DNA of 64,000 nucleotides from Acidobacteriota bacterium (GTDB taxonomy: Bacteria; Acidobacteriota; UBA6911; RPQK01; JAJDTT01): positions 1,888,001-1,952,000 of the forward strand of contig OZ253580.1 in NCBI GenBank assembly GCA_965263035.1, given 5' to 3'. Position 1 is the first letter of the stretch; every line of letters begins with the position of its first letter. A program made the position numbers and the translations under genes. Below, one piece after another: positions 55,252-59,394 of this stretch. The notes under the pieces are model-generated. The model worked only from the letters and a program-made list of their open reading frames with translations. It was not told the origin of the DNA and searched no databases.

Positions 55252-55276
55252 AGAAGGGGACTGTGACCTTCTCTAC
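55252..55276 (-). repeat. GTAG-hairpin (REP-like) repeat, copy 1
   Basis: Plus strand AGAAGGGGACTGTGACCTTCTCTAC. Confidence 0.8.
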
Positions 55277-57673: not shown

Positions 57674-58002
57674 TGGGGACTCCACCCAGGGAGCGGACTC
57701 GGAGCCGGCGCCCGAGCGAGTACAATTTCAACAGCGGATGAGATTCAAAGCGATCCTCAAACGCAGATGTCCACGATGTTTGCGTGGGCAGGTTTTCGCC
57801 TCGGCATTTCGTATGAGGCGGAACTGCGGTGTCTGCGACCTGAGATTCGAACGTCACGAACCAGGGTACTTTGTGGGTGCACTCTACTTCGCCTACGGAT
57901 TGGCGGTGCTGTTGGGCACTCCTCCTGCTGCCTATCTCTGGTGGCAGGGATTTTCGATAGAGGTTAACGCGCTTGTGATCACGGGAGAACTGATTATTTT
58001 AT

Positions 58003-58120
58003 GGGGCTTATATACCTAAGTGCCATTGGCATACAGTTCTGGCACCACGCTTTCCCCAACGAGATACGTTCCGGTGCCCAGGGCAAGAACCCCAGCCCTG
58101 AGAATGTTCAGGGCGGCATT
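58003..58120 (-). ncRNA. Putative omegaRNA/reRNA scaffold overlapping the tnpB 3' end
   Basis: Minus-strand stems CAGGGC/GCCCTG, GGCACC/GGTGCC and TGCC/GGCA follow NAALNI, where TnpB scaffolds normally lie. The 5' boundary is unknown. Confidence 0.55.
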
Positions 58121-59191
58121 GTGGTCCCTGTCCATTCCAAGTCCGCAGGCCCTGCACCGGAAGGTTTCGCTCCGTCCTGGATCGTGGCGGGCGCCGCACC
58201 GGTGGCAGTCCTGCGATGTATATGCGGGATTCACTTCTACGAACTTCCGACCGGCCCATTCTGCCTTGTACTGGAGTTGATTCCGCAGAAGCCCCCATGA
58301 TTGCGTCATTATTTCTCGATTCAGCCCCTTCTTCTTCGAGCCCTTCGTCACCATCCCTTGGATGTTCAGTTTCTCCACAGCGATCAGACCGTGCTCACGA
58401 ATGATCCTGGTGGAGAGACGATGGCAGGCATTACGGTTTCGGACCGATTCCCGGTGACGGAGCCGAGATAGCTGTACGATCCGTTTCCGTCTGGTCTTGG
58501 AAATCTTCTTGCACCTGGAGACCTTTCTCTGCTGCTTTCGGATCTCCCCCCAGTCCCGTCGATTCCGTTCGATCCTCTCACCCGTGGACAGCACCGCTCG
58601 CTTGCGGACTCCCAGGTCGATCCCCACCGAAGACTCGCATTTCGGTAGCGGCGGCTTCTCCACCTCGTAGGTCAGGTCCACATACACCCGGTTCGGCTTG
58701 CGGACAATCCGCAACGCTTTCAACGGGCATCCGTCCGGCAACGGCCGGGAGGGAAATATCCGGATCGTCGGAAAGCCCTTGGGCCGGATGGCGTAGCCCC
58801 GAGCGCGCTTCTTCACCAGGGTCGCTTTGGGGTCGACGACGTCGATGGTCTCCATCCTCGCAATGGGCCGGAATCGAGGATACCCCGGCTTCTCCCCCGC
58901 CTTGCAGCGACGGAAGAACGCCTTGAAGGCCCGGTCCAACCGAACCAGCATCCCCCGCTCCGCCTTGACCGCCACTGACCCGAGCCCCTCCGGATCCTCC
59001 TTCCTTTTGGAGGTCAACCCCTTCATCTGATCGTACAGGGTCACGCCGCGTTGCTCGGATTCCCAGGCCGTCCTGTGTTCCTCCAGTGCAGCGTTGTACA
59101 GCCGATTCAGGATGGACCTCACCCCGTCCAACCGCCGGATTCCACCCTTGGACAGCTTGGCTCTGCACTGGATAGTTGCGTGGCCTTTCAT
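58016..59191 (-). CDS. tnpB: RNA-guided endonuclease TnpB family protein
   Basis: LYNAALE, GYPRFR, RuvC-I GIDLG, RuvC-II IAVEKL, zinc finger CHRC/CRAC, RuvC-III DRDHNAALNI. Confidence 0.93.
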   Translation of the reverse strand: MKGHATIQCRAKLSKGGIRRLDGVRSILNRLYNAALEEHRTAWESEQRGVTLYDQMKGLTSKRKEDPEGLGSVAVKAERGMLVRLDRAFKAFFRRCKAGEKPGYPRFRPIARMETIDVVDPKATLVKKRARGYAIRPKGFPTIRIFPSRPLPDGCPLKALRIVRKPNRVYVDLTYEVEKPPLPKCESSVGIDLGVRKRAVLSTGERIERNRRDWGEIRKQQRKVSRCKKISKTRRKRIVQLSRLRHRESVRNRNACHRLSTRIIREHGLIAVEKLNIQGMVTKGSKKKGLNREIMTQSWGLLRNQLQYKAEWAGRKFVEVNPAYTSQDCHRCGARHDPGRSETFRCRACGLGMDRDHNAALNILRAGVLALGTGTYLVGESVVPELYANGT

Positions 59192-59394
59192 GGTAGGAAT
59201 TGTAAACCATCAGCCTGAATTCTCGGCACTTAGGCATATAATCCCCTATTTTATCTCCCTGGATCTTTCAGTACTCTCGAATCCTGTTCCTGCACTTGGA
59301 CCAGCTATTCGATCCCACCTAACTCGGGTGCGCTACTCAAGCTGCCCTACCAAGCTAGCCACGTCGCGGTAGCCCACAGACTCCCATCCACACG

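Follow-up and report, generated by a model that had tools for sequence, protein, structure and literature searches.

TnpB, a compact nuclease for genome editing, gave rise to Cas12, and its natural role is understood mainly for the IS605 and IS607 elements, which excise without leaving a scar. A tnpB gene in the genome of an Acidobacteriota bacterium (assembly GCA_965263035.1, contig OZ253580.1) lies instead between inverted ends flanked by a target-site duplication, and this raises the question of what kind of transposon carries the gene and what moves it. We analyzed the 64,000 nucleotides (nt) at positions 1,888,001 to 1,952,000 of this contig, referred to here as the window; coordinates are window positions unless given as genome positions. 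An earlier reading of the window, made without database searches (the sequence-only reading), had proposed that the TnpB was captured by a non-autonomous IS1595-type element, and this proposal was supported by shared ends, duplications, a second copy, empty sites and a protein tree. The element is very probably a non-autonomous member of the IS1595 family that carries TnpB and is moved in trans by a resident DDE transposase. The anatomy of the element makes mobilization in trans by an IS1595 transposase the most likely route.

A tnpB element with IS1595-type ends

The element proper occupies positions 58003-59246 (1244 bp). The span of 57995-59254 given in the sequence-only reading runs from duplication to duplication and is correct with both copies included, but it is not the extent of the element itself. 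The two inverted arms of 22 nt are complementary at 20 of 22 positions (91%) and form by far the longest inverted pair of the region, and a perfect 8-bp duplication, TATTTTAT, abuts both of them, as had been described. On the minus strand, tnpB is the sole family-matching open reading frame (ORF) between the ends. Its stop codon (58016-58018) is inside the inverted end on its 3' side (the right end), with 13 nt from stop to element end, and on the left side the start codon lies 55 nt inside the element end. There is no transposase gene in the element, which makes it a dependent derivative, as opposed to an autonomous insertion sequence. There is also no second gene, and so no serine-recombinase TnpA, inside the element (no genome-wide search for serine recombinases was made). 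Two Y1_Tnp matches were found in the genome, both weak and partial (39 and 36 bits) and far from any tnpB copy.

The 391-amino acid product was matched by the NCBIfam model guided_TnpB (NF040570) with 217.5 bits over residues 9-365, where the cut-off is 100 bits, and by the Pfam families Cas12f1-like_TNB (PF07282, 4.4e-26) and OrfB_IS605 (PF01385, 3.3e-18). It also aligned to the solved ISDra2 TnpB chains (E 2e-32). The RuvC residues D192, E273 and D356 and the zinc-finger cysteines C329, C332, C346 and C349 were invariant in alignments with 8 close and 16 more distant relatives, which confirms the earlier description of an intact TnpB as the only cargo. The tnpB copies are mostly intact ORFs. 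The element's only gene appears to encode an active-looking RNA-guided nuclease.

The element interrupts a gene that had been labeled DUF983-like. The resemblance is weak: the DUF983 profile scored 20.6 bits for the interrupted gene and 20.9 bits for an intact relative, both under the Pfam cut-off of 22.6 bits, and the label holds only in that sense. Removal of the element with one copy of the duplication restored the ORF to the stop codon TAA at 59320-59322, as predicted, and the uninterrupted gene with a single TATTTTAT at the insertion point was found at five loci in four genomes of the genus. Four runs of RNA libraries hold the element, as contigs, and these were used for the empty-site joint and for other flanks. 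Contigs of two of the runs join position 57994 directly to 59247, skipping the element and one duplication copy. Empty alleles, which the sequence-only reading had suggested as a check, are thus present both in relatives and in these contigs. The insertion in the DUF983-like gene is real and recent.

The same genome (6.2 Mb, one contig) contains 17 matches to the DDE_Tnp_IS1595 family (PF12762), all above the cut-off and 16 of them without a stop. One transposase ORF scored 178.7 bits on the NCBIfam model transpos_IS1595 (NF033547, cut-off 75 bits), 131 bits on PF12762 and 25.2 bits on Zn_ribbon_IS1595, the last just below the cut-off of 25.4 bits. A mismatch-tolerant search for ends recovered 13 transposase-type end pairs that open with the terminal 11 nt of the tnpB element or a near variant, and 12 of the 13 had perfect 8-bp duplications. 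The main transposase family is 1762 bp long and encodes a transposase of 334 amino acids, the ORF scored above. Of the 22 positions of its ends, 19, the first 11 nt among them, agree with the tnpB element; a second end block is also common to the tnpB element and the resident IS1595 elements. Seven compared copies of the 1762-bp element were 99.1-99.9% identical. The shared end type, the shared duplication length and the recent activity of both elements in one genome suggest a helper and its dependent element. An IS1595 transposase gene with matching ends was one of the expectations of the sequence-only reading, and both it and the assignment of the ends to IS1595 were upheld.

Over the genome as a whole, 14 of 15 end pairs of this type had a perfect 8-bp duplication, and in a Caldilineaceae genome described below (G041) its own variant of the end type gave 68 matches against 0 for a reversed control pattern. 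The ends and their duplication are therefore not a product of chance.

The 1762-bp IS1595 elements (for example L017:976-2737, genome 1740263-1742024) also have a passenger remnant of about 700 bp downstream of the transposase gene. The ORF of this remnant matches Mrr-type restriction-endonuclease domains (PF22722, 1.8e-07; PF04471, 1.1e-04), and this Mrr-like nuclease remnant indicates that the helper elements are cargo carriers too.

A second copy of the tnpB element, at genome position 1310799-1312042 and 634 kb away, matches it at all but 2 of 1244 nt and lies between copies of another duplication, ATATTCAT. Copies with the same ends and other duplications, of which there are dozens more in relatives, had been named as support for the proposal, and the lack of a second copy bounded by such ends as evidence against it. 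Three older tnpB families with related ends are present in the same genome (71-78% nt identity), and four copies of these families retain 8-bp duplications of their own. One of them, a family B element (about 73% nt identity) with its tnpB on the minus strand, enters the window with its 5' end at 1-97; it has the inverted end at 68-89, followed by the 8-bp duplication CTTCTTTT at 90-97, and the remainder precedes the window directly (genome 1886862-1888089).

The protein was found only within the genus, in five of eight other congeneric genomes and in none beyond (40 relatives searched). In a congener (G007) there are 17 tnpB matches, of which about 11 are full-length copies with 94-98% amino acid identity, and four intact copies of the same IS1595 transposase at 98% amino acid identity. 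The present genome (G000) and G007, both with family-A tnpB copies, therefore both hold the same transposase in intact form. One G007 copy (L025/L044) was considered as an orthologous insertion and rejected: it has the same 8-mer as its duplication, but the flanks differ and the site is a different one. In contigs of four RNA-library runs (X15-X18) the sequence past the right end of the element (from 58000-58002) continues into three other flanks, one of which is the flank of the second genomic copy. These extra flanks indicate that related strains carry the element at further sites.

Features of the tnpB element and the interrupted gene in the window (RE, right end; LE, left end; TAM, target-adjacent motif)
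Feature	Position	Strand	Remarks
Target-site duplication, copy 1, TATTTTAT	57995..58002	.	Follows the right end in tnpB orientation; one copy in relatives' empty sites
RE, inverted repeat at tnpB 3' side	58003..58024	-	20/22 pair; overlaps tnpB stop
Terminal hairpin of putative omega RNA	58003..58040	-	Inner RE repeat pairs with complement in last tnpB codons
tnpB, 391 amino acids, intact	58016..59191	-	Profile matches; RuvC D/E/D and CCCC zinc finger
LE, inverted repeat at tnpB 5' side	59225..59246	-	20/22 pair
Target-site duplication, copy 2, TATTTTAT	59247..59254	.	Read from sequence
G on tnpB strand directly 5' of duplication, candidate TAM base	59255..59255	-	G in 36/37 clade insertions
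5' part of interrupted DUF983-like gene	57741..58002	+	ORF and Pfam scan; intact relative
3' part of DUF983-like gene	59254..59322	+	Frame from duplication to TAA 59320-59322; matches C-terminus of uninterrupted relative

Occurrence in other genomes and phyla

Relatives of the TnpB at 42-56% identity were recovered from Bryobacterales, Binatia, Alphaproteobacteria, Caldilineaceae, Dehalococcoidia and SAR202 in a genome scan that used one genome per species. At the level of phyla the clade comprises Acidobacteriota, Binatota, Alphaproteobacteria and Chloroflexota. A strict scan (ends at least 14/20, duplication at least 7/8) found IS1595-type ends with a duplication at 31 of 57 genome loci with at least 42% identity. 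Most of the remaining loci in this range have the ends, with duplications that are swapped, lost or mismatched, and the strict scan accordingly passed over many true ends that have lost a matching duplication. Among all sampled TnpBs with at least 42% identity, one SAR202 locus (L072) is the only one not in such ends and lies in different inverted ends; in the others tnpB takes up the whole length of the element. Such ends were found at none of the 15 genome loci with 28-33% identity. A strict-scan pair of another end type (L061, 14/20) was probably due to chance.

In metagenomes, 80 loci at 33-44% identity were found, and the two at 43-44% have these ends. At 33-40% identity, 1 of 78 loci had convincing inverted ends with a duplication, and these were of another type; L235 (38%) has 19/20 ends of different sequence with a perfect 8-bp duplication. 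A further pair (L189, 13/20 ends and 6/8 duplication) was probably a chance match, and the remaining metagenome loci showed no inverted ends with duplication above background. Ten upstream ORFs at metagenome loci of 33-40% identity had no Y1 or serine-recombinase domain, and the end-less relatives can therefore not be assigned to ordinary IS605 or IS607 ends. TnpBs at 37-45% identity were seen in other kinds of inverted ends at three metagenome loci (L235, L237 and L245) and at the SAR202 locus L072. TnpB may have been captured by inverted-end transposons on more than one occasion in this region of the tree.

In a tree of 70 proteins, from which 14 short or broken ORFs were omitted, 56 clade members were split with full support from 14 relatives without such ends. 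The tree that had been suggested as a check therefore placed the TnpBs in such ends in one group, for the loci sampled. The sampling was pattern-based and a search of protein representatives returned relatives whose identities run continuously over 33-54% and which lack genomic context, so that the clade boundary is approximate and the single clade refers to the sampled loci only. Transposase elements with the same opening bases at their ends were found in four of five other host genomes searched. No IS1595 transposase was found inside the same ends in 100 tnpB loci searched by tblastn with the resident transposase. A Bryobacterales locus (L093) that had appeared to co-encode a transposase was rejected: the transposase belongs to an unrelated IS1595-family element (L093:3424-4488, 1065 bp) with 45-nt inverted ends, inserted into the tnpB gene. 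Two of the RNA runs that hold the element (X17 and X18) are labeled 'sponge metagenome', and the spread across phyla may reflect exchange within one habitat type.

The Caldilineaceae genome G041 contains more than 20 tnpB copies, many of them near-identical, together with deletion derivatives of 222-1135 bp that have the same ends (for example among L071, L076 and L151-L156). These short derivatives align to the full element as internal deletions. Some G041 copies have exchanged flanks (for example L079/L086), which indicates recombination between copies.

The right end and the flanking G

The tnpB stop is 5-60 nt from the right end in the 15 intact clade copies measured (two further copies with a premature stop were set aside), which suggests that a guide-RNA scaffold lies within the 3' coding region and the end. 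The inner part of the right end and an upstream complement can form a 7-bp stem. When this stem was anchored on a conserved upstream motif and on the element tip, 100 of 105 positions were paired across 15 clade members; shifted registers gave 18-69 paired positions, and none of 2000 partner shuffles reached 100. The pairs covary and include many G-U pairs on the tnpB sense strand, which argues that the hairpin is a feature of the RNA and not of the DNA or of the other strand. A further hairpin upstream with CG/GC swaps was predicted by RNAalifold, as was a pairing between the element tip and a triplet in the catalytic-site codons about 160 nt upstream, both invariant, which precludes a covariation test. 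Single-sequence folds are weak, with z = -2.1 for the 278-nt 3' region, and the hairpin claim thus rests on the comparison across the clade. No Rfam family matched the element; the sole match was a microRNA at chance level (E 0.85). The right end appears to be built into a conserved RNA-type hairpin, an observation that is new here. It would illustrate the uptake of a transposase-binding site into a guide-RNA scaffold, which has been reported for the eukaryotic Fanzors.

We oriented 37 independent insertions by their tnpB and compared the flanks. The base just 5' of the duplication (position -1) was G in 36 of the 37, and the first duplicated base was A in 32, while the base after the right-hand duplication copy was unbiased. 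With additional left ends included, G was found at -1 in 45 of 47 cases, and for one of the two others the end call is doubtful. The transposase elements of this genome had G at -1 in 4 of 12 cases in either orientation (Fisher p = 9e-6). In G041, G was at -1 in all 11 insertions that retain their duplication. The two ends of the G041 elements are nearly identical over 26 nt, and the bias must therefore come from a directional feature inside the element. The near-universal G beside the duplication is new here. The chance that this G is the target-adjacent motif (TAM) of the nuclease is roughly even. A TAM of this kind would be an unusually relaxed targeting requirement and of practical interest.

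These features can be joined in a model of how the element may move and persist. A DDE transposase from IS1595 elements elsewhere in the genome would bind both ends of the tnpB element and insert it with an 8-bp staggered cut, with no movement of the IS200/IS605 or IS607 kind. The TnpB lineage would have been resident in such ends for long, and recoding would have made the right end the final hairpin of the guide-RNA scaffold. Transcription past the right end would yield a guide made up of the duplicated 8 nt and flanking DNA, and this guide would match the empty site. This match would be preceded by G in the empty site and by the C-rich element tip in the occupied site, providing discrimination of self from non-self. 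TnpB would cut empty sites, and recombination with an occupied copy would restore or fix the insertion; we give this step of restorative homing about an even chance. The G at -1 in nearly all surviving insertions is proposed to result from homing on cuttable empty alleles. Restorative homing and the logic of a TAM have been proposed for IS605 elements, as set out in a 2026 review (PMC13565253). The combined picture, of a lineage in at least four phyla that has abandoned HUH and serine transposases, hitch-hikes exclusively in MITE-like IS1595 shells, uses the end as an RNA stem and the duplication as the start of the guide, and has the survival or even the placement of its insertions decided by a G TAM, is offered tentatively and falls somewhat short of an even chance. 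If it is true, it would provide direct genomic evidence of an RNA-guided nuclease shaping the insertion landscape of a bacterial DDE transposon.

Competing explanations and precedents

Several observations weigh against an IS1595-driven, homing TnpB element. The chief one is G041, which does not fit a simple story: this genome has no PF12762 match above the cut-off and retains only a 62-amino acid transposase remnant. Most simply, a burst was followed by the helper's loss, or the helper is on a replicon that the assembly does not include; the elements may be stranded, have a partner outside the assembly or use another mover. Another genome of the set, G005, has only broken or partial matches to the resident IS1595 transposase. 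The ends of the tnpB element are similar and not identical to those of the transposase elements, with 3 of 22 positions differing. With respect to the guide RNA, the last 73 nt of the element's own family, folded alone, gave a non-significant z = 0.14, and neither transcription nor strand nor RNA ends can be read from the RNA-library contigs. A TAM of one base would be unusually short, and if the duplication were part of the scaffold, as in the parts of the Fanzor literature that bear on this, the conserved G would be too far from the target. Finally, the relevant passages of the 2026 review point out that DDE excision already leaves a break, which makes the benefit of a homing nuclease less obvious (PMC13565253).

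These difficulties have to be set against what else could produce such an element. The ends might belong to a pre-existing IS1595-type miniature inverted-repeat transposable element (MITE) into which a canonical IS200/IS605-type (IS1341-like) tnpB was inserted, a scenario that the sequence-only reading had itself raised. MITE-like deletion derivatives of 222-1135 bp with the same ends do occur in G041, and TnpB relatives at 33-40% identity are mostly without inverted ends and duplication. The 13 nt at the stop side and 55 nt at the start side leave no room for IS605 ends, however, and the tnpB stop codon is inside the inverted end. This tight layout is kept in relatives of 42-100% amino acid identity from four phyla, the end covaries with its upstream complement inside the gene, and the short derivatives of G041 align as internal deletions of the full element. 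The layout of ORF and ends and the place of the end within a clade-wide RNA-type hairpin contradict a nested IS605 element, which we regard as very improbable. A mover other than an IS1595 DDE transposase, either a transposase of a different family or a process involving TnpB, would account for G041, with its 68 ends, many near-identical tnpB copies and no IS1595 transposase, and for a flank signature (G at -1) that is unlike that of the transposase elements in the same genome. The terminal 11 nt, the second end block and the 8-bp duplication are nevertheless common to the tnpB element and the resident IS1595 elements, both genomes with family-A tnpB copies (G000 and G007) hold the same transposase intact, and the 62-amino acid remnant in G041 fits the loss of a partner. 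A different mover is therefore improbable, though less so than the nested element.

The meaning of the flanking G is less settled. It could reflect an asymmetric target preference of the transposition complex and not a TAM, caused for example by an extra inverted copy at the right end. The right end does have an upstream inverted complement, which makes the two ends unequal as DNA, and all 3 short derivatives of G041 with intact duplications carry the G at -1, oriented as in the other insertions; these derivatives may be in-situ deletions, in which case they are uninformative between the two readings. The G is nonetheless found in all 11 duplication-keeping insertions of G041, where the 26-nt ends are nearly identical, the transposase elements are unbiased in either orientation (4/12), and the many G-U pairs suggest that the extra arm belongs to the RNA and does not serve to bind protein. 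We consider asymmetric transposition somewhat unlikely, although it is the most serious of the alternatives. TnpB could also be passive or exapted cargo, for example a regulator, without a role in the spread of the element, and exapted and inactivated TnpBs are common according to Altae-Tran et al. 2023 (PMC10691335). Neither the catalytic D/E/D residues nor the zinc finger varies, ORFs are intact in most copies, tnpB goes with mobile and recently transposed copies, and a flank signal that depends on orientation would be difficult to account for if TnpB had no strand-specific function, all of which makes passive carriage unlikely.

A non-autonomous IS1595-family element with TnpB, mobilized in trans, remains the best explanation, and it has precedents on several sides. 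With the IS1595 family the element shares its end sequences and the 8-bp AT-rich duplication, and transposase-bearing members are present in the same genome. It differs from the family in having no DDE transposase with an N-terminal zinc ribbon of its own inside the element. ISfinder lists consensus end sequences for subgroups of the family, one of which may resemble the present ends. The family reportedly includes members with passenger genes, described by Siguier and colleagues in 2009; here, in contrast to those members, the passenger is an RNA-guided nuclease whose putative RNA uses the end itself. IS607 elements have a serine-recombinase TnpA next to tnpB and lack inverted ends and duplications, whereas the present element has inverted ends and a duplication and no second gene inside. 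With the IS1341 group of IS200/IS605 it shares the protein family (guided_TnpB), the non-autonomous tnpB-only layout and, for the putative guide-RNA region, an overlap with the gene's 3' end. In IS200/IS605 elements inverted ends and target duplications are absent, and insertion is beside a fixed motif of 4-5 nt, as summarized in the relevant passages of the 2026 review (PMC13565253). The 22-nt inverted ends and variable 8-bp duplications found here set the element apart from them.

The eukaryotic Fanzors are the closest parallel in lifestyle. Fanzors in transposons of eukaryotes and viruses that have inverted ends and target duplications are said to have been described by Bao and Jurka in 2013. 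As in Fanzor1 and Fanzor2*, a non-autonomous element bounded by inverted ends and target duplications carries nothing but a nuclease of the TnpB family; the hosts here are bacteria and the protein is a TnpB of ordinary size (391 amino acids), close to the ISDra2-type enzymes. In Fanzors the inverted ends and the duplications are part of the guide-RNA scaffold, in the portions of Yoon et al. 2023 that describe it (PMC10711439). The inverted end of the tnpB element is likewise predicted to be folded into the scaffold, but the conserved G suggests that its duplication may belong to the guide.

Capture of TnpB by DDE transposons in prokaryotes is already in print. Altae-Tran et al. (2023, PNAS) describe, in the main text, six DDE-associated TnpB branches (DDE-1 to DDE-6) with inverted terminal repeats, and solo TnpBs in the same ends that are moved in trans by transposases (PMC10691335). 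The present element resembles the DDE branches in having a prokaryotic TnpB in an inverted-end transposon with the TnpB 3' end near the transposon end, and it resembles the solo TnpBs in that its ends are like those of transposase-bearing elements and mobilization in trans is proposed. Unlike in DDE-1 to DDE-6, no tnpB element sampled in this study holds a transposase within its ends. The duplication length, the flank signature and the end hairpin were also worked out here. The only transposon family named in the main text of that paper is IS630, and IS1595 and ISXO2 are not named there (PMC10691335), although its supplements may already contain the clade. The passages of the 2026 review on DDE partners list ISL2, IS630 and IS1031 and do not name IS1595 (PMC13565253). 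Our literature search found no description of a TnpB associated with IS1595, with the same proviso for the supplements. The sequence-only reading, which had left novelty open, is thus anticipated as to capture and solo TnpBs and not as to the IS1595 partner; TnpB capture by a DDE transposon is known in outline, and the IS1595 partner family, always with a non-autonomous element, is the new part.

The same review, in its treatment of OMEGA nucleases, describes their pairing with DDE transposases as rare in prokaryotes and questions its benefit (PMC13565253). The locus and its relatives offer a clean multi-copy bacterial system in which to ask what that benefit is, with a nuclease-only element of known ends, a candidate partner transposase, natural empty sites and a sharp flank signature.

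A further repeat was noticed near the insertion. A 26-nt hairpin-forming sequence is present at window positions 55252, 55914, 57357, 57642 and 59397, flanking the DUF983-like gene and its neighbors and lying outside the tnpB element. The genome has 21 copies with at most 3 mismatches, many of them clustered in about 16 kb around the locus. The repeat could be a terminator or an element like the repetitive extragenic palindromic (REP) sequences.

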